Source: Chlamydiia bacterium (GTDB taxonomy: Bacteria; Chlamydiota; Chlamydiia; Chlamydiales; Parachlamydiaceae). Taken from it: DNA of 21,226 nt. Below the pieces are notes generated by a model. That model was not told where the DNA came from. It searched no databases and worked only from the letters and a program-made list of their open reading frames with translations. The position numbers and the translations under genes are program-made. Position 1 is the stretch's first letter; each line of letters begins with the position of its first letter. Positions 7,189-16,381 of the stretch are shown in pieces. Where the stretch lies: the NCBI GenBank assembly GCA_038257035.1, contig JBBSJT010000029.1, forward strand, positions 1 to 21,226, written 5' to 3'.

Positions 7189-8022
7189 TTAAGGCAATCT
7201 TGGAAATTGGCTAAAGTCAGGTTTGCGCTTTTCAAGAAAAGCGTTTTTCCCTTCAGCAGCTTCTTCTGTCATGTAATAAAGCAGAGTAGCATTGCCTGCA
7301 AGTTCTTGAAGGCCAATTTGTCCATCACAGTCAGCGTTTAAAGCAGATTTTAAGCAACGAAGGGCCAATGGTGAATGTTGCATCATTTCACGCGCCCATT
7401 TAATGGTTTCTTCTTCTAAATTTTCAAGAGGCACCACCGTATTGACAAGCCCCATTTGTAAAGCTTCTTCTGCATCGTATTGTCGGCAGAGGTACCAAAT
7501 TTCGCGTGCTTTTTTTTGTCCGACTATACGACTTAAGTAGCTGCTTCCAAGACCTGCATCAAAAGAACCTACTTTTGGTCCAACCTGTCCAAATTTTGCA
7601 TTTTCTGCTGCAATGGTCAAATCACAAACAATATGTAAAACGTGTCCTCCACCAATTGCGTAGCCCGCAACCATGGCAATGACAGGTTTTGGCATATGAC
7701 GAATCTGCTTTTGCAAGTCTAATACGTTTAGTCTTGGAACGCCATCAGAGCCAACGTACCCTTCTCCCCCACGGATTTTTTGGTCTCCTCCGGAGCAAAA
7801 AGCTTCATTACCTTGGCCTGTCAGGATAATCACGCCAACCGTTGCATCGTTGCGTGCCATTTCAAATGCCACTTGCATTTCCATGACTGTTTCGGGACGA
7901 AATGCATTTCTCACTTCAGGACGATTAATTGTTATTTTAGCAATACCATCGTCTGTTTTTTCATATTTAATATCTTGAAATGTTTTAACAGACTGCCAAT
8001 TGGCCATGTGCGTGATTGTCAT
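7189..8022 (-). CDS. menB: 1,4-dihydroxy-2-naphthoyl-CoA synthase
   Basis: Crotonase-fold MenB motifs [43 protein letters not shown]. The start overlaps the menH stop (ATGA); alternative start at 8007. Confidence 0.97.
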
Positions 8023-8714
8023 AAACCCTCTAAAAATAAGTTAACTTGTTTTTCAAATTCTACGGATTCCCATGCTACCCGATGAGAGCAATTTTTCGCT
8101 ATCCAAACTCGCGATTTAGGGTTTGAAAATGTTAAGTTTAAGGCAAGATCGGTAAATTTGAAATCTTTTTCGCCTACAATCCACAGAATCGGCATCGGTA
8201 GTTTGGTAATTGCTTCTCTTAAATCATCTTGTAGACCCAAAGACCAGTCATCGAGGCATTGTTCTAACATTTGGTCTGTATAGTCCCCTTTAGACAAGTT
8301 TAAGGGATTGTCTTTATTAAAAATTGGTTGATCGTTCCATTCACTCATTACGGCATCAAAATCTTCTGTTTGAAATTTTTGCAGCCAGTTTTTATCGCTT
8401 TTGAAACGCTCTTGTTTTTCGTATTCTGTAATTAAACCGGGATGTGCCGAAATGATGATTGCCGCTTTCCACTTATTTGGTGAGTCAATCAAGGAATGGA
8501 GTGCGAGACGCCCTCCCATGGAATAGCCAAGAAGTATATTTTCTTGTCCTTCTAGGACTTTGTTTTGATTAAAATCGGAAGCAAATTCTAAAATGTTTAA
8601 TGTTTTTTTCGAATGAAAAAGATTAGGGGCAGTAAGTGGAGCATAGAAATTGAATTTATCCCAATCAGTAGATGTCCCAAGGAAGCCATGCAAAGCATAA
8701 ATTTTTTTATTCAT
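8019..8714 (-). CDS. menH: SHCHC synthase (alpha/beta hydrolase)
   Basis: LHGFLG oxyanion motif, [10 protein letters not shown] nucleophile elbow, GEKDFKF, C-terminal His; directly upstream of menB. Confidence 0.88.
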
Positions 8715-8760
8715 GTATGCAGCATAAACAATTTACGCAATTTTTAACAATTCCATATTT

Positions 8761-9014
8761 TTTGTGGCACTACTCCGTAGTGCATGATTATATGATATTT
8801 ACCGGTGGTTGCACCACCGGCTAGCTATGTAGTACCGCTCCGCGGTAAAAGCAATTTATTTCCTCTTAGTTTTAATCGCGAAAATTAACCCACTTAATCC
8901 TTAACCGTTTGACATTACTTTGTTTTTACCGCGGAGCGGTACTACATATCTAGCCGGTGGTGGAACCACCGGTACATCAATTATTAAAATGCACCACGGA
9001 TGTGGTGCCACAAA
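8761..9014. repeat. REPIN-like cluster downstream of the transposase (two inverted three-hairpin units)
   Basis: A hairpin 8764-8783 and B unit 8801-8847, a unique spacer, then inverted B unit 8927-8973 and inverted A hairpin 8991-9011. Confidence 0.92.
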
Positions 9015-9016
9015 CG

Positions 9017-9466
9017 CTATCCAAGAACGAAATTTTCGTTATATTCAATTTTATGGCTCTTAAGGAAATTTAGCCATTCTTCATCGAATCCACGAATTTT
9101 ATGATGTTCTTTTTGATTCAAAATATATTCTTTTACCATATCTGTTTGTGATGTACTAACACTAAAGGCTCCAAAACCAGTCTGCCAGGAAAATTTATTA
9201 AAATCAGGAGATGTTTCTTTAAGCCATTTGGAGGAAGCAACTTTAACTGTTTTAACCAAATCAGAAATATTTTGATCAGGATTTAACTGAACCAATAAAT
9301 GCACATGGTCTGACATGCCACCTATTTGAATAACGGTTCCATTTTTTGCTTGTACAATACCTGTCATATATGCATGAAGTTTATTTTCTATTGTTTCTGA
9401 TATGAAACCCGCTCTATTTTTGGTAGACCATATTAAATGGTAATATAATGCACTATATGTAGTCAT
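9017..9466 (-). CDS. tnpA: IS200/IS605-family Y1 transposase TnpA, probably REP-associated (RAYT-like)
   Basis: YHLIWSTKNR, HUH motif DHVHLL, FSWQTGFGAFSVS, catalytic Tyr in EYILNQKEHH. SD AAGGA upstream; intact 149-aa frame. Confidence 0.92.
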   Translation of the reverse strand: MTTYSALYYHLIWSTKNRAGFISETIENKLHAYMTGIVQAKNGTVIQIGGMSDHVHLLVQLNPDQNISDLVKTVKVASSKWLKETSPDFNKFSWQTGFGAFSVSTSQTDMVKEYILNQKEHHKIRGFDEEWLNFLKSHKIEYNENFVLG

Positions 9467-9480
9467 TTCAAATCCTTATT

Positions 9481-9911
9481 TGGGGCACTACTCCGTAGTG
9501 CATGATTATATGTATAGACCGGTGGTTGCAACACCGGCTAGCTATGTAGTACCGCTCCGCGGTAAAGCAAATTTTGCCTAAGTCTTAAGCAAAACCGATT
9601 GCTAAGCTTTTATGGCGTTAAATATTAGAATCATGTGATTTTTATTGATAGCTAAAAATATCGGTATGAGTTGTATAATTGTTTTTTTATCGCAGAGCGC
9701 TACTACATAGCTGGCCGGTGGTGCAGCCACCGGTAAGAATTTTTGTTTTACCACGGAGCGGTACTACATAGCTAGCCGGTGGTGCAACCCACCGGTATTT
9801 CATTATTGTATGAGCTACATGGCTTTACCGCGGAGCGGTATTACATAGCTAGCTGGTGGTGAAACCACCGGTAATTTATTTATTGTAATGCACTACGGAG
9901 TAGTGCCACAA
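9481..9911. repeat. REPIN-like cluster upstream of the transposase (one forward unit, three inverted B units, terminal A hairpin)
   Basis: A 9482-9501 and B 9518-9564 in forward orientation; inverted B copies at 9688-9734 (degenerate), 9749-9796 and 9826-9872; inverted A at 9890-9910. Confidence 0.92.
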
Positions 9912-9960
9912 TTTAGCTTAATTAATTCCACTGAATTGCAGAAGACTAAACTTGCAAAGT

Positions 9961-10965
9961 TTAAGTGTTCCATTTTTGTTTAAAAAATGCGTCCATATTT
10001 GATGGATCACTATCGCTGATCAAGTTGTAGGCTTTGACAGCATTTTCTGGTTTGGCATTATGAAAAAATTCCAAGGCTACATGCCCAAGAAGAGCGTCTT
10101 TATTTTTAACATCAAGTTTGTTTGCAATTTCTAATATTTCATCAAATTTGTTAGCATTAACTAGATTTCTTATTGTATATGAAGTTTGACCCAACTCTTT
10201 AAAAATATTATCTTTTTCAATTCCTTGACTCATTGCAACTTCAATCCCTTTCTTCATATAACCTGCTTCACAAAGCTGGACAGCTAGATTATTAAAAGTT
10301 TTTCTTTTGCTTTGTTGATGAGAAATTGTGCTCGCAAGATTTATCGCTCTATCTACAAAGCCATAGTTTAGTAATGCAGATGCAATGCCCATTTTGAACC
10401 CATCCTCATCATTCAATGCAAAAGGAAGTGCAGCTAGCACAAAAAGATTATTTAAAGACTGATTTTCCGGTAAGACAAGATCAGGATAGATTTCCATATC
10501 CCATGATAGGGGTGTTTTTTCAACTGTCATTGGCATTAAAGTCATTAATGTAGCATGGGGTAATTTTTTTAAGATGGCTACAACTTCATCTTTGACAATC
10601 ATTAATGAAGATTTGACTTCTAATAGATTTATGGGTTTACGCTCATTCGCAATGATTAAAAGCTCTTCTAATTTCTTGATGACCTCATCAATTTCTAAAG
10701 AAGGTTTTTCAATTTTCATTGTGTTTAAATGAACAATCAAACCTTCTAAATATGAATTTAGAAGGGCAAATTCTTGATTTTTAATTGAATTGAGAACTTC
10801 AACATTAAAAAATTTATCTACGGAACCAGCATTTGAGAGGCTCAATTCATCAAGTTGAGAAAAGATTAACATAACAACTTCACGAGGGAGCGTTGGATTT
10901 GTAATTATTGATTCTGGATTAGATGAAATAGGTTGATTACCACTACTTGACTTTACTGGCTCCAT
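9961..10965 (-). CDS. F-box-like/helical-repeat protein, paralog 6 (candidate secreted effector)
   Basis: LPREVVMLIFSQLD...VDKFFN after an S/N/Q/P-rich N-terminus; SD AGGAGG; paralogous to its neighbours. Confidence 0.82.
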   Translation of the reverse strand: MEPVKSSSGNQPISSNPESIITNPTLPREVVMLIFSQLDELSLSNAGSVDKFFNVEVLNSIKNQEFALLNSYLEGLIVHLNTMKIEKPSLEIDEVIKKLEELLIIANERKPINLLEVKSSLMIVKDEVVAILKKLPHATLMTLMPMTVEKTPLSWDMEIYPDLVLPENQSLNNLFVLAALPFALNDEDGFKMGIASALLNYGFVDRAINLASTISHQQSKRKTFNNLAVQLCEAGYMKKGIEVAMSQGIEKDNIFKELGQTSYTIRNLVNANKFDEILEIANKLDVKNKDALLGHVALEFFHNAKPENAVKAYNLISDSDPSNMDAFFKQKWNT

Positions 10966-10987
10966 AACTACCTCCTGCTATAAGCTA

Positions 10988-11992
10988 TTATTTTTGTTGT
11001 TCAAAAAAGGCATCTTTATTAGCTTCAGAGCTATTACTCATTAAATAATAAAATTTAGTTGCATTTTCAGGTTTGCCATTTTTGAAAAATTCCTTTGCCA
11101 CCAAACCAAAAAGAGCATCTTTATTATTGGTAGCAAGTTTACCTGCAATTTCTAAAATTTCATCAATTTTTTCGTTTTTCACCAGAGAACGTAATGTGGG
11201 TGAGAGTGTTCCTAATTCCTTATATATATTATTTTTATCAATACCAAGGCCCTCCGCAATTTCATTTGCTTTCTTGAGATAACCCGCTTCTAAAAGAAGT
11301 GCTGACATCATCAACAATAAATTCCTTTTTTCAATTTCATCGTTAAACTTATTGGCTAAATTTATAGCCTTATCTACTAAACCAAACATAAACAGCTCAC
11401 TAACAGCCTCTTGTAAGAAATGTTGCGGAACATTTTCTTCATCTGACGCTACCAAATAAAAAAAATGATTAAAAGGCGGTTTGTCAGTTGGCATGGTTCC
11501 GGGATAAACTTCCATATTCCACGATACCGGTGTCTTTTCGTATTCCATTTTTTGTGTTAACATCCCTAATGTAGGCATATCCATATTCAGACTCTTTAAT
11601 AATTTGATAACATCATTTTTTACGTTCATTAACGAAGACTTAACTGTTAATAAATTAAAAGGTTTAAGAACATTCACACTTACTAAAACTTTTTCTAATT
11701 CTTCCACAACCTTTCCAACTTCCTTTGAATCGGATGCAATTTTTATATTTGCAATTAAGCTTTCAACAAAAGATTTTAAAAGGTTAATTTCTTCGTTTTT
11801 CACAGAATTTAAAACTTGTGGATTAAAGATTTTATTTACAGCGCTTGCTTGTTCTGATCCCATGGCATCCAGTTGAGAAAAGATAAGCATAACAACTTCC
11901 GGTGGAAGCGTTGGATTCTGTATGGTTGTGTCTTGGTTTACATTTTGATTTAATGGACTATTATTGACATTACTTGTGTTTATAGGTTCCAT
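10988..11992 (-). CDS. F-box-like/helical-repeat protein, paralog 5
   Basis: LPPEVVMLIFSQLD...VNKIFN; N/Q-rich N-terminus; SD AAGGAG. Confidence 0.82.
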   Translation of the reverse strand: MEPINTSNVNNSPLNQNVNQDTTIQNPTLPPEVVMLIFSQLDAMGSEQASAVNKIFNPQVLNSVKNEEINLLKSFVESLIANIKIASDSKEVGKVVEELEKVLVSVNVLKPFNLLTVKSSLMNVKNDVIKLLKSLNMDMPTLGMLTQKMEYEKTPVSWNMEVYPGTMPTDKPPFNHFFYLVASDEENVPQHFLQEAVSELFMFGLVDKAINLANKFNDEIEKRNLLLMMSALLLEAGYLKKANEIAEGLGIDKNNIYKELGTLSPTLRSLVKNEKIDEILEIAGKLATNNKDALFGLVAKEFFKNGKPENATKFYYLMSNSSEANKDAFFEQQK

Positions 11993-12080
11993 AACAAGAT
12001 CTCCTTAGCTGTTTGGAATAATTTAAATATACTTATTTTAAATTAAAACCATTCGTTAAATAGCTACAAAATTAACTGTT

Positions 12081-13109
12081 TCAAGCTTTTAAAAAAAAGG
12101 CATCTGCTTTTGATGGATCTTTATCGCTATCACTTATTAAATAGTAAGCTTTATATGCATTTTCAACTTGAGATTGATTCCAGAATTCCAGAGACACAGA
12201 AGTAAGAAAAGCATCTTTATTTTTAATATCAAGCTTGCCTGCAATTTCTATAATTTCATCAAATTTTTCATAATTTACAAGATGTCTAACAGAAGCTGAA
12301 ACATGACCGAGCTCTTTAAAAATATTATCTTTTTCAATTCCTTGGGCTTTTGCAACTTCTATTCCTTTTTTCATATATCCTGCCTCACAAAGCAATACGG
12401 CGAGATAATTAAAAGTTTTTCTTTTGCTGGTTTGATCAGAAATTGTATCAGCAAGATTTATCGCTTTATCTACAAAGCCATAGTTAAGCAGTGTGGCGGC
12501 AAGCTCAGCTTTTTCCTGATCCTTATAAAAAACCTCTAAGTCTTCATCAATATCCTTTGATGCTAGAAGTGCAGTTAATACAAAAAGTTTATTCATTGGC
12601 TGGATTTCTGCAGGAACTAGATCGGGATAGATTTCCATCTCCCAAGATAGTGGTGTTTTATCAACTGTTAATTGCATTAAAGTCATTAATTTTTCTAAGG
12701 GTAATTGTTTTAAAATAGTGACAAGCTCATTTTTCACACTCATCAATGACGATTTAACTTCTAGTAAATTAATAGGTTTACGTTCATTTGCATTTACAAA
12801 AAGCTCTTCAATTTTTTTGATAACTTCATCAATTTCTGCAGAAGGAGTTGTAGTTTTCATAGTATTTAAATGACTACTTAAGCCATTCAAAAAAGAATTT
12901 AAAAGATTAAACTCTTCCCTCTTGATTGAATTAAGTACTTCTACATTAAAATATTTATCAACCAAACCGGCTTTTGATATATCCAATTCATCAAGTTGAG
13001 AAAATATAAGCATGATGATTTCACGGGGAATCGTTGGATTTGAAACAGCTGTGTCCTGATTGGTTGCTGAAATGGGTTGACTACTATTACTTACCTTTAT
13101 AGGCTCCAT
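12081..13109 (-). CDS. F-box-like/helical-repeat protein, paralog 4
   Basis: IPREIIMLIFSQLD...VDKYFN; closest to paralog 6; SD AGGGGG. Confidence 0.82.
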   Translation of the reverse strand: MEPIKVSNSSQPISATNQDTAVSNPTIPREIIMLIFSQLDELDISKAGLVDKYFNVEVLNSIKREEFNLLNSFLNGLSSHLNTMKTTTPSAEIDEVIKKIEELFVNANERKPINLLEVKSSLMSVKNELVTILKQLPLEKLMTLMQLTVDKTPLSWEMEIYPDLVPAEIQPMNKLFVLTALLASKDIDEDLEVFYKDQEKAELAATLLNYGFVDKAINLADTISDQTSKRKTFNYLAVLLCEAGYMKKGIEVAKAQGIEKDNIFKELGHVSASVRHLVNYEKFDEIIEIAGKLDIKNKDAFLTSVSLEFWNQSQVENAYKAYYLISDSDKDPSKADAFFLKA

Positions 13110-13126
13110 AACTACCCCCTATTAGA

Positions 13127-14230
13127 TTATTTTTTTTGTTGAAGATTTATAACTTTTTTAAGTGAGGCTTTATAAGATTCATCACTAATTAAGTTGTAAG
13201 CCTTTAAAGCGTTTTCAATATCATTTTGACTTAAAAAATTGGAGGCTATAGAAAGCCAGGTGTCATTTTTTCTTTTTTCATCTAAAGTACTGCCAAGAAC
13301 GATTGCTTCATCCAGTTTACCCATAAGAGCTAATTCGTTGACTTCTTTACTAAGAAACATATCACTTCTTTCTTTTAGGTGTTTAAGGACAACATCTTTA
13401 ATGCTATGCTCATCAGCAATTTTCATCCCTTTATCCGAATATCCCGCATCACAAACTTCCAAAGCGAGCCATATGATCATTTCCTTTTTTTGGACCGGAT
13501 CAGAGATGGTGTTGCTGAACTGAAGTGCCCTATCAATAAGTCCAAGAGATTTTAACTGCCCGCACAATTGCATAATTGAGTCATCATCAATTACCTTAGT
13601 GCTCTCAATGATTTTAGAAACAGAAGCTAATAAAAATAAAATTCCGGTTTTGTCATTAGTTTCTTTAACGAGTTTTGGATACACTTCAAAATCCCATGTA
13701 ACCGGGGTTTTATTATCTTCACACATCTCGGCTAAAGTGAATAAAATTTCTCGATCTAGGTATTTCAAAGCATCAATGATTTTTTCTTTTACATTGACCA
13801 GGGAGGTTTTAATTGTTACTAAACTAAAAGGTGATTTTAGATCCTCAATATTTTTATCTGCTATTGTGATCGAGGCTAATTTCTTACAAACTTCATCCAT
13901 CACTTTTATTTCTACATCAAGTTCAAAGCGTTCATCAGGTTTAAGTTCCTTATCATCAACTTGAAGTTCGATTGAAATAAATTTTAGATTTTCAATTAAA
14001 CTTGCGATAAAAGATTTGGCAGTTAAAAATTCCTCTTCTTTAACACAATTGATGACTTCTGTTTTCCAAAGATTAGATACGGTAAGTAATTGCGCTGGAT
14101 CCAAAGATTCCATTTGGGAAAAAATCACCCTGATAATTTCTGACGGAAGGGATTTAATAGGGCCTTCTTTAACTTGCCCTTGAGTTAATTGAATCTCATT
14201 ACTTTCATTACTTCCTTGTACAGGTTCCAT
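13127..14230 (-). CDS. F-box-like/helical-repeat protein, paralog 3
   Basis: LPSEIIRVIFSQME...VSNLWK; SD AGGAGG. Confidence 0.82.
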   Translation of the reverse strand: MEPVQGSNESNEIQLTQGQVKEGPIKSLPSEIIRVIFSQMESLDPAQLLTVSNLWKTEVINCVKEEEFLTAKSFIASLIENLKFISIELQVDDKELKPDERFELDVEIKVMDEVCKKLASITIADKNIEDLKSPFSLVTIKTSLVNVKEKIIDALKYLDREILFTLAEMCEDNKTPVTWDFEVYPKLVKETNDKTGILFLLASVSKIIESTKVIDDDSIMQLCGQLKSLGLIDRALQFSNTISDPVQKKEMIIWLALEVCDAGYSDKGMKIADEHSIKDVVLKHLKERSDMFLSKEVNELALMGKLDEAIVLGSTLDEKRKNDTWLSIASNFLSQNDIENALKAYNLISDESYKASLKKVINLQQKK

Positions 14231-14261
14231 AAAATCCTCCTAACAACAAATTAAAAATTAT

Positions 14262-15386
14262 TTAGTCATTTAGCTCTGCCAAAATTATTTTGAGTTCTTC
14301 AATACGGTAGATAAGATCGGGTATATGAGAAAGATCTGGCATGAAAGAAAAAGACTCAACATACTCGTTTAGTTTTTTCACTATTTCTTTTTTTGCAGAA
14401 CTTCTTAGTTGATCATCCTCAATTAAAACATAAATTTTAAGAGCATCCTTATAGTCCAGTGTATTGAGAATTATCGAATTAACATCACACAAAACGGAAT
14501 CTCTTACTTTTACATCTTTTATTAAACTGCAGATTTTCATCACCAAGGCAATTGGTTGATTCTTTGTGTAATACTTGATTACATTTGTTAAGTCCGGTAT
14601 ATACATGGGATTCGTATTTGCTATATCAACTGCTTTTTGCAAAAATCCTTTTCGAATAAGGTCTTTTAAAATTACTTCAACGTATAGCGATCGCTCCTCT
14701 TTATTTGAAATTTCCTGCACTTTTTCAATAGCCCGATCAACATAACCTTCATGGATAAGATTGGAAACAACAGCACTTAAACTTCCAAATTTTAAAATAT
14801 CAGTAATTTCAAAGATATCAGCCTTATCCCCCCCATAAATCTCTAAGTTCCAGGTTTGAGGTGTTTTTTCATCTTGTAACGTTGAATGTAATATAAAGAT
14901 TATATCTCTATCTAAAGGCTTTAAGAGGTTAATGATTTGGTTTTTCTCGCTCATCAATGATGTTTTTATTTTTAATAAATCAAGCGGTTGAGTAATTTTA
15001 CTATTTTTGAGGATTTCCAACGCCTTAATCACAGTCTTAACTTGAGCTTCTCTTTCAGACTCAAAAATATTCAAGTGGGTATGGGTAATAAAATATTTAT
15101 CTTTTAACCCTAGAACATCGTAATCAATGGGATTTTTTACAATAAGTTCCAATTTATGGATTAATGCAATTACAAACGAATCTAATAAATTAAGCTCTTC
15201 TTCTCTAACGGCCTTTATTACTTCAACATTCCAAAGAGAACTGACACTACTTAGTTCTTGAGTTCCCAGTTCCTTCAAATGAGAAAAGATCAACATCAAA
15301 ATTTCTGGTGGGATTTTTTTAATGGGTCCTTCGGTCACAACCTGAGTAGGTAAATCTTTATTAACACTTGGTTGTATGGGCTCCAT
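14262..15386 (-). CDS. F-box-like/helical-repeat protein, paralog 2
   Basis: IPPEILMLIFSHLK...LSSVSSLWN; SD AGGAG. Confidence 0.85.
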   Translation of the reverse strand: MEPIQPSVNKDLPTQVVTEGPIKKIPPEILMLIFSHLKELGTQELSSVSSLWNVEVIKAVREEELNLLDSFVIALIHKLELIVKNPIDYDVLGLKDKYFITHTHLNIFESEREAQVKTVIKALEILKNSKITQPLDLLKIKTSLMSEKNQIINLLKPLDRDIIFILHSTLQDEKTPQTWNLEIYGGDKADIFEITDILKFGSLSAVVSNLIHEGYVDRAIEKVQEISNKEERSLYVEVILKDLIRKGFLQKAVDIANTNPMYIPDLTNVIKYYTKNQPIALVMKICSLIKDVKVRDSVLCDVNSIILNTLDYKDALKIYVLIEDDQLRSSAKKEIVKKLNEYVESFSFMPDLSHIPDLIYRIEELKIILAELND

Positions 15387-15405
15387 TTCTTTCTCCTAAG
15401 TAAAA

Positions 15406-15425
15406 TGACGGGTTAAAACCCGTCA
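15406..15425 (-). terminator. Intergenic hairpin (weak terminator or mRNA-stabilising stem) between paralogs 1 and 2
   Basis: TGACGGGTT-AA-AACCCGTCA perfect inverted repeat, followed by TTTT on the minus strand. Confidence 0.45.
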
Positions 15426-15439
15426 AACATGCTTAAAGT

Positions 15440-16381
15440 TTAACCATTGGGTAAATTCATGGCCGTGTTAATATGTTCTAAAGCCTCGGCTTGAATATCA
15501 GGATCAGTTATGAAATTTGCAACATCAATTGCTTTATCAAAATATTTATCAAAAATAAGTTCGTTGCAGATTTTTTGCAGAACAACAGATTGCTGATCTA
15601 GATCAGGTATTTGTACTGCGTATTCGACTGCCCTGTCAAGGTGACCGCGTTGTATTAATGTATTAATAACTTCTACTATTGACTCCATTTTAAAATAATC
15701 AGGATAAGTCATGGCAGTTGCTATTTTTTTTCGGGCTTCAAATAAATTGCCAAAAACAGTGTAAAAATTCTTGCTACGTACATTTGCTGAATCGGATAAA
15801 TAATGAAGCTTCCAAAGATTAGGTAATGCTACGTTTTTAGTCATTGCCAATGCTTTTATAAATAGATCATCATCAAAACTTGACAAGCTGTCTAAAATTT
15901 TCTCTAATATGTTGATGACAACCTGTTTAAATTTTATTAAATTAAGTGGTTCAAGCTCTTTAGTTTCGTTGATAAGTTCTGTTAAATCGATAATTGCTTG
16001 ATCTATACAATTTTGATCCCGGGCGAATTTGTCTTCTACTTCCTGATATTTATTATAACTTTTGACATTGAGTATTTCATATTTATCTAACCCCATTGTA
16101 TCGTAATCATCAGGATTTTTAGCTATAAACTTTAAATTACTGATCAGCGCATTCACAAACTGGTAAGCTAATTGCTTCTCCTCTTTAACTACATTCACAA
16201 CTTCAACATTCCACATTTTACTGACTAGGAGGGCTGCTGTTGAATCGGTTGAGTCTAATTGAGAAAAAATTACTCGAATAAGTTCATTTGGCACTATGTT
16301 AATCTTGCCGGAAATCATCTCCCCATCTCTATTTTGAATCGGTAGATTACCGTTATCATAATTTCCACTTACACTCTTCAT
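15440..16381 (-). CDS. F-box-like/helical-repeat protein, paralog 1 (first gene of the array)
   Basis: VPNELIRVIFSQLD...VSKMWN; C-terminal repeats GHLDRAVEYAVQIPD / YFDKAIDVANFITD; SD AAGGA. Confidence 0.8.
   Translation of the reverse strand: MKSVSGNYDNGNLPIQNRDGEMISGKINIVPNELIRVIFSQLDSTDSTAALLVSKMWNVEVVNVVKEEKQLAYQFVNALISNLKFIAKNPDDYDTMGLDKYEILNVKSYNKYQEVEDKFARDQNCIDQAIIDLTELINETKELEPLNLIKFKQVVINILEKILDSLSSFDDDLFIKALAMTKNVALPNLWKLHYLSDSANVRSKNFYTVFGNLFEARKKIATAMTYPDYFKMESIVEVINTLIQRGHLDRAVEYAVQIPDLDQQSVVLQKICNELIFDKYFDKAIDVANFITDPDIQAEALEHINTAMNLPNG

Follow-up and report, generated by a model that had tools for sequence, protein, structure and literature searches.

The window considered here, the whole 21,226-nucleotide contig JBBSJT010000029.1 (C29) of the assembly GCA_038257035.1, carries a gene for an HUH/Y1 transposase, tnpA, that is enclosed on both sides by repeated units built of hairpins. 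The assembly of this genome (G000) comprises 2.37 Mb in 210 contigs at 36% G+C. The gene lies between that of a MenH-like hydrolase (8019-8714, minus strand) and an F-box-like gene (9961-10965, minus strand), the first of a row. An initial annotation of the locus had described an intact transposase without tnpB, surrounded by six B units (hairpins 1 and 2, or B1 and B2) and four A hairpins (hairpin 3). It had proposed a REP-associated tyrosine transposase (RAYT) with its REPINs, paired forms of repetitive extragenic palindromes (REPs), in a chlamydial host. The host attribution stands, as the nearest named MenB proteins belong to Parachlamydiaceae metagenome-assembled genomes (MAGs; 82-83% identity) and to Ca. 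Protochlamydia naegleriophila (80%). The counts of both hairpin types are likewise correct, being recovered by reading of the sequence, by a repeat search and by an nhmmer profile built from the six local copies. The features so positioned are listed below, where L037 denotes a metagenome contig with the orthologous locus.

8762-8850, minus strand: full unit, left arm of doublet 1, read as A', B2', B1' on the plus strand (nhmmer E 5.3e-28).
8851-8923, no strand: 73-nt spacer within doublet 1, unconserved with respect to L037.
8924-9013, plus strand: full unit (B1, B2, linker, A), right arm of doublet 1 (nhmmer E 9.9e-26).
9017-9466, minus strand: tnpA, encoding a 149-amino-acid HUH/Y1 transposase (Pfam Y1_Tnp, 108.3 bits; motifs DHVH, WQ and YILNQKEHH).
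9480-9567, minus strand: full unit immediately 5′ of tnpA, which forms the left arm of the extended doublet 2 (nhmmer E 4.1e-26).
9568-9684, no strand: 117-nt spacer, unconserved with respect to L037.
9685-9739, plus strand: B-only unit with hairpins 1 and 2, hairpin 1 being degenerate (nhmmer E 9.9e-15; repeat family D1).
9746-9809, plus strand: B-only unit, hairpin 2 with a one-base insertion (nhmmer E 4.3e-16; alignment).
9823-9911, plus strand: full unit, right arm of the extended doublet 2 (nhmmer E 6.7e-27).

Four of the units around tnpA are full, with three hairpins in ~89 nt, and two lack hairpin 3 (hairpin A). A full unit begins with hairpin 1, TACCGC GGA GCGGTA, which is followed by CTACATAG(C/G)TAG. 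Hairpin 2 consists of CCGGTGGT GNA ACCACCGG and leads into an AT-rich linker, and hairpin 3, GCACTAC GGA GTAGTGC, is followed by C(C/T)ACAA. On the coding strand the layout is an inverted unit, the two B-only units, a forward unit, the ribosome-binding site (RBS), tnpA, an inverted unit, the 73-nt spacer and a forward unit. The gene is flanked on each side by one inverted doublet, and the third hairpins adjoin its start region and its stop codon. Directly upstream, the unit at 9480-9567 reads B1, foot and B2, linker, A, RBS and ATG on the coding strand. At the other end, hairpin A at 8991-9008 adjoins the stop codon and is terminator-like on the minus strand (predicted site 9008-8991); across 8650-10000 there are six terminator-like sites against 1.3 expected. 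No promoter-like site was found within the spacer 9568-9684, and the tnpA promoter must lie in this spacer or farther upstream.

Chance is no explanation for these repeats, since the hairpin-2 pattern, allowing up to two mismatches, has five sites in the window and the hairpin-3 pattern three, against none in 100 shuffles for either. The sixth copy of hairpin 2 carries the one-base insertion and was detected by the repeat search and nhmmer only. The fourth copy of hairpin A, at 8991-9008, has a compensated stem, CACCAC/GTGGTG, and a 4-nt loop. No further unit copies were found elsewhere in the window. A CRISPR array, a tRNA-linked element and a riboswitch were rejected from the anatomy alone, because the repeats are inverted and non-periodic, with no spacers of constant length. 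No Rfam family matched above its gathering score, and two microRNA-precursor matches at 9522-9730 (50.8 and 28 bits; gathering score 110) are artefacts of the long hairpins.

The family extends well beyond the window. Fifteen further full units were found by nhmmer on eight other contigs, bringing the total to 19; the assembly is a fragmented MAG, in which repeats at contig ends are undercounted. All of the dispersed units except a single one on C17 form inverted doublets (14 units in seven doublets, on C3, C14, C134, C11, C54, C12 and C91), and weaker partial copies lie on C55, C13 and C106. Every dispersed doublet has hairpin 3 and its foot outermost, and the ends read TTGTAG...CTACAA. Their lengths are 188-253 bp (n = 7), with five at 188-192 bp. 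At the 12 unit loci examined, there is no overlap with any open reading frame (ORF) of at least 100 amino acids in any case, and none of the nine dispersed loci with ORFs on both sides (outside the window contig) lies between divergent gene starts. The GTGG/GTAG feet previously described on the opposite strand recur in the family: GT[AG]G stands at the 5′ foot of hairpin A in 16 of the 19 aligned units and GTAG adjoins hairpin 1, with most dispersed copies having GTAG beside hairpins 1 and 2. The doublet ends show no target-site duplication. Seventeen copies of the hairpin-2 core are present in this genome, and none in 30 related ones. As a separate observation, the sequences just outside the doublet at C134:4325-4550 (L015) are themselves inverted repeats (CCCACATCTTTA ... 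TAAAGATGTGGG), and this doublet may sit inside another palindromic element.

Alignment of the 19 full units provides evidence for the paired structure. A standard pair is present in 97.9% of 380 pair cells, and pairing falls to 25-57% in controls with slid partners. Changes on both sides occur at five pairs (32 cells), and the observed covariation score was matched by none of 500 shuffles. Hairpin 1 covaries between ACCGC/GCGGT and ATCAC/GTGAT, and hairpin 3 between CACTAC, CACCAC and CACCGC, each with its matching partner. These compensatory changes support hairpins 1 and 3, while hairpin 2 is nearly invariant and displays no covariation. On either strand, the predicted fold of a single unit consists of the three hairpins (z -4.2 to -5.7), with z -4.2 for the unit 8762-8850 on both strands. 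For a whole doublet of ~190 nt, the predicted fold is one long hairpin (-78.3 kcal/mol, z -16). All 19 units are distinct, with a mean pairwise identity of 0.76 and a maximum of 0.91; identity is 0.85 among the local copies and 0.72 between local and dispersed ones.

The transposase is intact, as had been stated, with its DHVH and YILNQKEHH motifs kept. The absence of tnpB is also borne out: the neighbours are MenH-like and F-box-like, and PF07282 (TnpB) has no match in the whole assembly, the control search having found it in eight of 14 genomes. The protein exceeds the cut-off of the NCBIfam equivalog transpos_IS200 (NF033573; 87.3 bits against 55) and fails the model REP_Tyr_transpos (NF047646; 29 bits against 80). 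Its sequence matches in the PDB are the ISDra2 and IS608 TnpAs (E about 1e-9), and E. coli RayT is absent among the matches at E up to 1. The AlphaFold (AF2) model has a pLDDT of 94.2, and a Foldseek search with it returns ISDra2, IS608 and IS200 TnpA chains at E 1e-9 to 2e-7, with E. coli RayT (4er8) at rank 30 (E 5e-5).

Of 167 stored homologues, 159 carry Y-x3-Q-x2-HH and none carries Y-x3-NP, which is given as the class 2 signature by Quentin et al. 2018 (PMC6006769). Residues W94, Q95, Y114, Q118, H121 and H122 are invariant across 62 aligned sequences. Table 1 of the same paper lists subclass 1.2 with DH[IV]H, WQ, YIKNQKEHH and a median of 148 amino acids, at 1.7 copies per genome with 36% identity; the subclass is marked “REP: no” and is assigned mostly to Cyanobacteria and Bacteroidetes. 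The HUH motif, WQ, the type of Y-motif and the length of 149 amino acids agree with these entries, which places the window TnpA by its sequence in TnpAY1 subclass 1.2. The low copy number and the diverged copies in one genome (here 27-47% identical) agree as well. The host family and the dispersed multi-hairpin repeats on the flanks are unlike the subclass as tabulated there. By the same sequence measures, the protein is no canonical RAYT.

A quick tree of 52 rows was built from the window protein, three proteins of the same genome, 14 related or metagenomic ones, 30 random representatives, three IS200/IS605 TnpAs and E. coli RayT; no row represents C119, whose ORF was not extractable. The window protein forms a group with those of L037 and P0002 (support 97), to which P0005 is added next (support 98). 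The three insertion sequence (IS) TnpAs form one group beside or within the Y..Q..HH proteins, while a long branch apart from them carries RayT of E. coli together with the class 2 protein of this genome. The resolution is poor, with 23 of 48 inner branches open. The window protein nonetheless groups with the Y..Q..HH and IS200/IS605 TnpAs, far from E. coli RayT, which is contrary to the RAYT affiliation first proposed. As a side observation, 25 of the 167 stored homologues (P0020-P0047 and others) are fusions of two Y1 domains with 266-321 amino acids. Both HUH motifs are mostly kept in them, and in many the Tyr motif of the N-terminal domain is missing or has its Y replaced by H or F. This hints, at the level of sequence, at a subclass that may work as a dimer with one complete active site.

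A single copy of tnpA at 100% identity was found in the assembly by tblastn, together with five diverged loci at 27-47%; the multi-copy state of an IS was not seen. The paralogues lie on C105 (47%), C119 (37%, the match spanning one TGA), C48 (27%), C25 and C7. The last two (C25, 9979-10418; C7, 10521-10957) were each matched in two pieces and are probably frameshifted. The repeats that flank the C7 and C25 paralogues recur at few other loci. Fourteen of 30 related genomes have a TnpA match, several of them more than one diverged match, and none exceeds 47% identity. In a plasmid search 1062 records matched TnpA, all below 60% identity; the best match (49.6%) lies on a 632-kb Persicobacter replicon, and the other 24 matches listed reach at most 31.6%.

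The locus itself is conserved in one relative. The contig L037 encodes an 85% identical TnpA within the same order of F-box-like gene, tnpA and menH, and its units are laid out in the same way. The nonsynonymous and synonymous divergences of tnpA between the two loci (Ka 0.067, Ks 0.51) give a ratio of 0.13, which indicates that the gene is under purifying selection. The neighbouring menH has a Ka of 0.097 and a Ks of 0.38. As the Ks of tnpA is 0.51 against 0.38, the sequences imply that tnpA has been at this locus for at least as long as menH. The units, including the linker, are roughly 90% alike (by eye in the alignment) and the spacers are unalignable. The linker had been described as variable in sequence, which is true among the dispersed copies and untrue of the orthologous copies in L037, where it is conserved. 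Hairpin 3 of L037 shows a compensated change, GCACTGC...GCAGTGC. In two genomes of the same genus, a gene of 420-445 amino acids stands directly before menH.

Each of several TnpA paralogues in this genome is paired with a hairpin family of its own. The C105 paralogue (C105:2160-2875, L022) has a different three-hairpin unit on each side, in inverted orientation, with the stems CAGGGC AAA GCCCTG, CCTAGGGC AAA GCCCTAGG and GCAGGC TGTAG GCCTGC. This family gives 119 nhmmer matches, 79 of them near-full, on 39 contigs. As many as 47 matches lie within 300 nt of a contig end, and the family probably causes much of the fragmentation of the assembly. Neighbouring units are placed inverted-then-forward in 39 pairs and forward-then-inverted in 18. 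There are 36 unit pairs at least 98% identical, which suggests from the sequences that the family was copied recently. In a census of perfect G+C-rich hairpins in the genome (384 in all), those flanking tnpA genes are among the most frequent: CCTAGGGC occurs 66 times, CCGGTGGT 14 times and GCACCAC 13 times, with AACGGGT (18) and GTTACAG (13) flanking the C48 gene and CCGCGGGT (13) that of C119.

Two further Y1 loci of this genome were noted. The 148-amino-acid paralogue at C48:13885-14277 (L026) has lost the second His of HUH (SDHIQ) and the catalytic Tyr motif, and is still flanked by the hairpins CAACGGGT TAAA ACCCGTTG (stem 18 times) and GCTGTAAC TTAA GTTACAGC (13 times). At C68:12186-12590 (L027) there is a class 2 Y1 protein (NF047646, 86 bits; NHYH, YVMQNP), whose gene has inverted CAGCCCG hairpins at 12029-12048 and 12792-12811.

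The three-hairpin unit was initially regarded as unusual, a view that could not be upheld, given that multi-hairpin units also flank the C105 gene and the genes of the genomes G002, G009 and G005. Homologues in related genomes and in one Bacteroidota MAG have inverted hairpins on their flanks. The frequent flanking hairpin there has an (A/G)TAG foot, an 8-bp stem starting with CC and a GNAA-type loop, and in G002 and G009 it is accompanied by two further hairpins. In G005, a genome of the same family in four contigs, TAG-CCCAGGCC-GYAA-GGCCTGGG occurs 116 times (control 0), mostly in convergent pairs (about 58). Three elements of ~205 bp, when aligned, show 92% similarity, each arm containing three hairpins. 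The Persicobacter (Bacteroidota) replicon, whose gene is also a member of subclass 1.2, holds ~14 hairpin sites in about five pairs; the gene lies in one pair and four gene-less pairs lie within 8 kb. A proliferated family is not present for every member of the subclass: in G009 the hairpin is found at the two gene-flanking sites only, and in G021 (the genome of L002, with a TnpA 45% identical) it is found at six sites, two of them beside the gene. The pattern TAGCCCAGGCC..AAGGCCTGGG has no match in G000, G024 or G027.

Taken together, the locus is probably a REPtron- or REPIN-like system that is built on an IS200-like transposase of TnpAY1 subclass 1.2 and has no canonical RAYT. It is classed as working like a REPtron with an enzyme other than a RAYT, since the enzyme is IS200-like class 1 and fails both RAYT sequence criteria that were tested. 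Features of RAYTs and REPtrons that are present include the single gene copy, the inverted flanking units and the family dispersed between ORFs. The REPIN feature present is the joining of two inverted units into one long hairpin that is dispersed and intergenic. The initial proposal of a RAYT/REPIN system can be kept for the REPtron-like organisation, the dispersal and the single copy, and must be given up for the protein (29 against 80 bits).

The systems used for comparison were E. coli RayT and the Group 2 and 3 RAYTs of Pseudomonas. As these are described in PMC5581495, PMC3733652 and bioRxiv 10.1101/2021.07.10.451892, they share with the window a single-copy Y1 gene, inverted flanks, cognate intergenic doublets forming long hairpins, and GT[AG]G feet. 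Common to both as well are several diverged gene-repeat pairs per genome and a locus conserved under purifying selection, which for the window was seen in one relative. Unlike the RAYTs, the enzyme here is IS200-like class 1, with Y..Q..HH and not Y..NP, and fails NF047646. The units also differ from REPs as described in the same sources, having three hairpins in ~89 nt as opposed to one hairpin of 20-40 nt, and numbering only 19 full copies. These copies are all different, and the window family does not form a large population around one abundant master sequence.

Resemblance to other described elements is partial. The TIRtrons of Di Nocera et al. 2013 (PMC3733652), with their transposases (TIRYTs), are described there as having long, partly self-complementary inverted flanks of Y1 genes that are dispersed as singles, dimers and groups, as is the case here. 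The P. putida and P. fluorescens units of GTAG plus stem-loops in that account are likewise composites of more than one stem-loop. According to Quentin et al. (PMC6006769), most TIRYTs are class 2 proteins of subclass 2.1 with C-terminal helix-turn-helix domains, unlike the minimal 149-amino-acid class 1 enzyme and the GTAG-footed units of the window. Composite or double-palindromic flanks of Y1 genes (TIRtrons) and several REPtrons per genome have already been described in PMC3733652, and the overall design is therefore already known. A literature search found no REP- or REPIN-type association for subclass 1.2, and no paper besides that of Quentin et al. that uses this subclass name in the present sense. 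Membership in IS200 Group 3 of Bertels et al. 2017, which is described as RAYT-like, was considered as a possibility; the supplementary data searched contain neither an NQKEHH or NQEEHH motif nor Chlamydia for that study, and no chlamydial genera for that of Quentin et al. It also found no such elements in Parachlamydiaceae, one paper naming the Planctomycetes-Verrucomicrobia-Chlamydiae (PVC) superphylum in general terms.

A mechanism can be proposed from the known chemistry of the IS608 and ISDra2 TnpAs and of E. coli RayT, which bind single-stranded DNA at hairpins, with the cleavage sites defined by bases of the hairpin foot, as described in part in PMC3733652 and PMC6006769. TnpA would bind the hairpins of the window family in single-stranded DNA. 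Hairpin 2, whose sequence is invariant and whose position corresponds to that of the footed 8-bp hairpin beside other genes of subclass 1.2, would be the likely recognition site. The GTAG/GTGG feet of hairpins 1 and 3 would determine where cleavage and joining take place; both hairpins are GTAG-footed and keep their shape and not their sequence. Hairpin 3 would form the element ends of the dispersed doublets. The doublets would be moved or copied in trans with no target duplication, and the tnpA gene itself would not be mobilised.

The chief alternative explanation is an autonomous IS200-like insertion sequence made of unit, tnpA and inverted unit, with a length of about 650-700 bp. The gene-less doublets would then be derivatives resembling miniature inverted-repeat transposable elements (MITEs), and the single copy would reflect an IS of low activity or one that is dying. 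IS200/IS605 elements (IS608, ISDra2 and IS200) are the nearest relatives in sequence and fold, and they share the HUH/Y1 chemistry, hairpins adjacent to the gene and the lack of a visible target duplication. The transpos_IS200 score and the top matches to ISDra2 and IS608 TnpA fit this explanation. Classical members are multi-copy and near-identical, have two end hairpins on the same strand and often carry tnpB. The window differs in its single tnpA copy, its inverted flanks and syntenic locus and the absence of tnpB from the genome, and it lacks both the several near-identical copies with fixed ends (paralogues reach 47% at most; the pair in L037 is a tandem at the same locus) and the frequent presence on plasmids. 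In a relative with neighbouring genes diverged to a Ks of about 0.4-0.5, tnpA still occupies the same chromosomal position, and its Ks is not below that of menH. The dispersed doublets are reversed, with hairpin 3 outermost, opposite to unit-tnpA-unit, and are therefore no simple internal deletions of it. An insertion sequence of this kind is judged unlikely for this genome, and fits G005 and Persicobacter better.

Several points weigh against the REPtron-like reading preferred here, and some of them favour the IS. The enzyme sides with autonomous IS200/IS605 transposases by both sequence and fold. In G005 and Persicobacter the gene lies inside an inverted pair, one of about 58 and one of about five, respectively, and the gene-less pairs resemble MITEs of an IS. 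L037 has two identical tandem copies of tnpA with a 706-bp period, showing that a block of gene plus units can duplicate; the duplicated block (L037:1391-2900) consists of tnpA, the inverted unit, the spacer and the forward unit. IS-like duplication is a possible origin of this tandem, and unequal recombination between direct unit copies ~710 bp apart, from which exactly such a tandem would be expected, explains it as easily. The 210 contigs leave room for a collapsed tandem copy of tnpA in this assembly. Both this tnpA and the repeat are missing from the two same-genus genomes, which have no tnpA or F-box gene at that position, and vertical persistence was seen in one relative only. The window family is small and old (19 units, none more than 0.91 identical), with no sign of recent mobilisation. 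When 60-nt flanks of 10 unit loci were compared by BLAST with the genome, neither an empty site nor a target motif was recovered, the sole shared piece being a short stretch beyond the C134 and C11 doublets. Contigs from public reads, among which one run (X2) holds a related strain at about 95-97% identity, break at the repeats, and a usable excision joint was not obtained.

The units could also be mainly structural or regulatory elements of the host, such as terminators or stabilisers of mRNA 3′ ends, with tnpA a relic that no longer moves them. The excess of terminator-like sites around the gene, the absence of dispersed loci between divergent gene starts, the lack of any unit pair above 91% identity and the conservation of units but not spacers between lineages would all agree with such a role. 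This explanation is nevertheless highly improbable. The transposase retains its HUH and Tyr motifs under a Ka/Ks of 0.13, and several diverged paralogues are each flanked by their own repeat family. In addition, the 36 unit pairs of the C105 family suggest recent copying in a sister system.

A wider interpretation is put forward tentatively. Subclass 1.2 may constitute a second lineage of domesticated IS200-like enzymes that keep REPIN-like populations, either independent of the RAYTs or intermediate towards them. The subclass seems to hold both stages of a proposed route from IS200 to REPtron. The IS-like stage seems to be represented by the G005 and Persicobacter genes within an inverted multi-hairpin pair, and the REPtron-like stage by the gene of this genome and of L037, fixed between GTAG-ended doublets. 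The order hairpin 1, foot, hairpin 2, linker, hairpin 3 and gene would then be the ancestral end structure, and Parachlamydiaceae would carry several co-resident systems of this kind.

If the REPtron-like reading is correct, the entry “REP: no” for subclass 1.2 in Table 1 of PMC6006769 is at stake. The subclass 1.2 enzyme of the window bears the marks of a domesticated REP transposase, namely a single copy, a syntenic locus, purifying selection and cognate doublets, and in this genome and a related one the repeat families of sister genes in the subclass number about 80-120 copies. A single protein subclass with both layouts would then allow the emergence of REPIN-RAYT systems from IS200-like elements to be traced. 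Much of the repeat load of environmental Parachlamydiaceae genomes, and of the fragmentation of their assemblies, would be accounted for as well.

Beside the locus, the window contains a row of six consecutive ORFs of 313-374 amino acids on the minus strand (9961-16381). The two same-genus genomes have no genes of this row beside menH. The first ORF has a weak F-box-like Pfam match (E 0.0022), and the first two, both of 334 amino acids, share an N-terminal LPxEVVMLIFSQLD motif.

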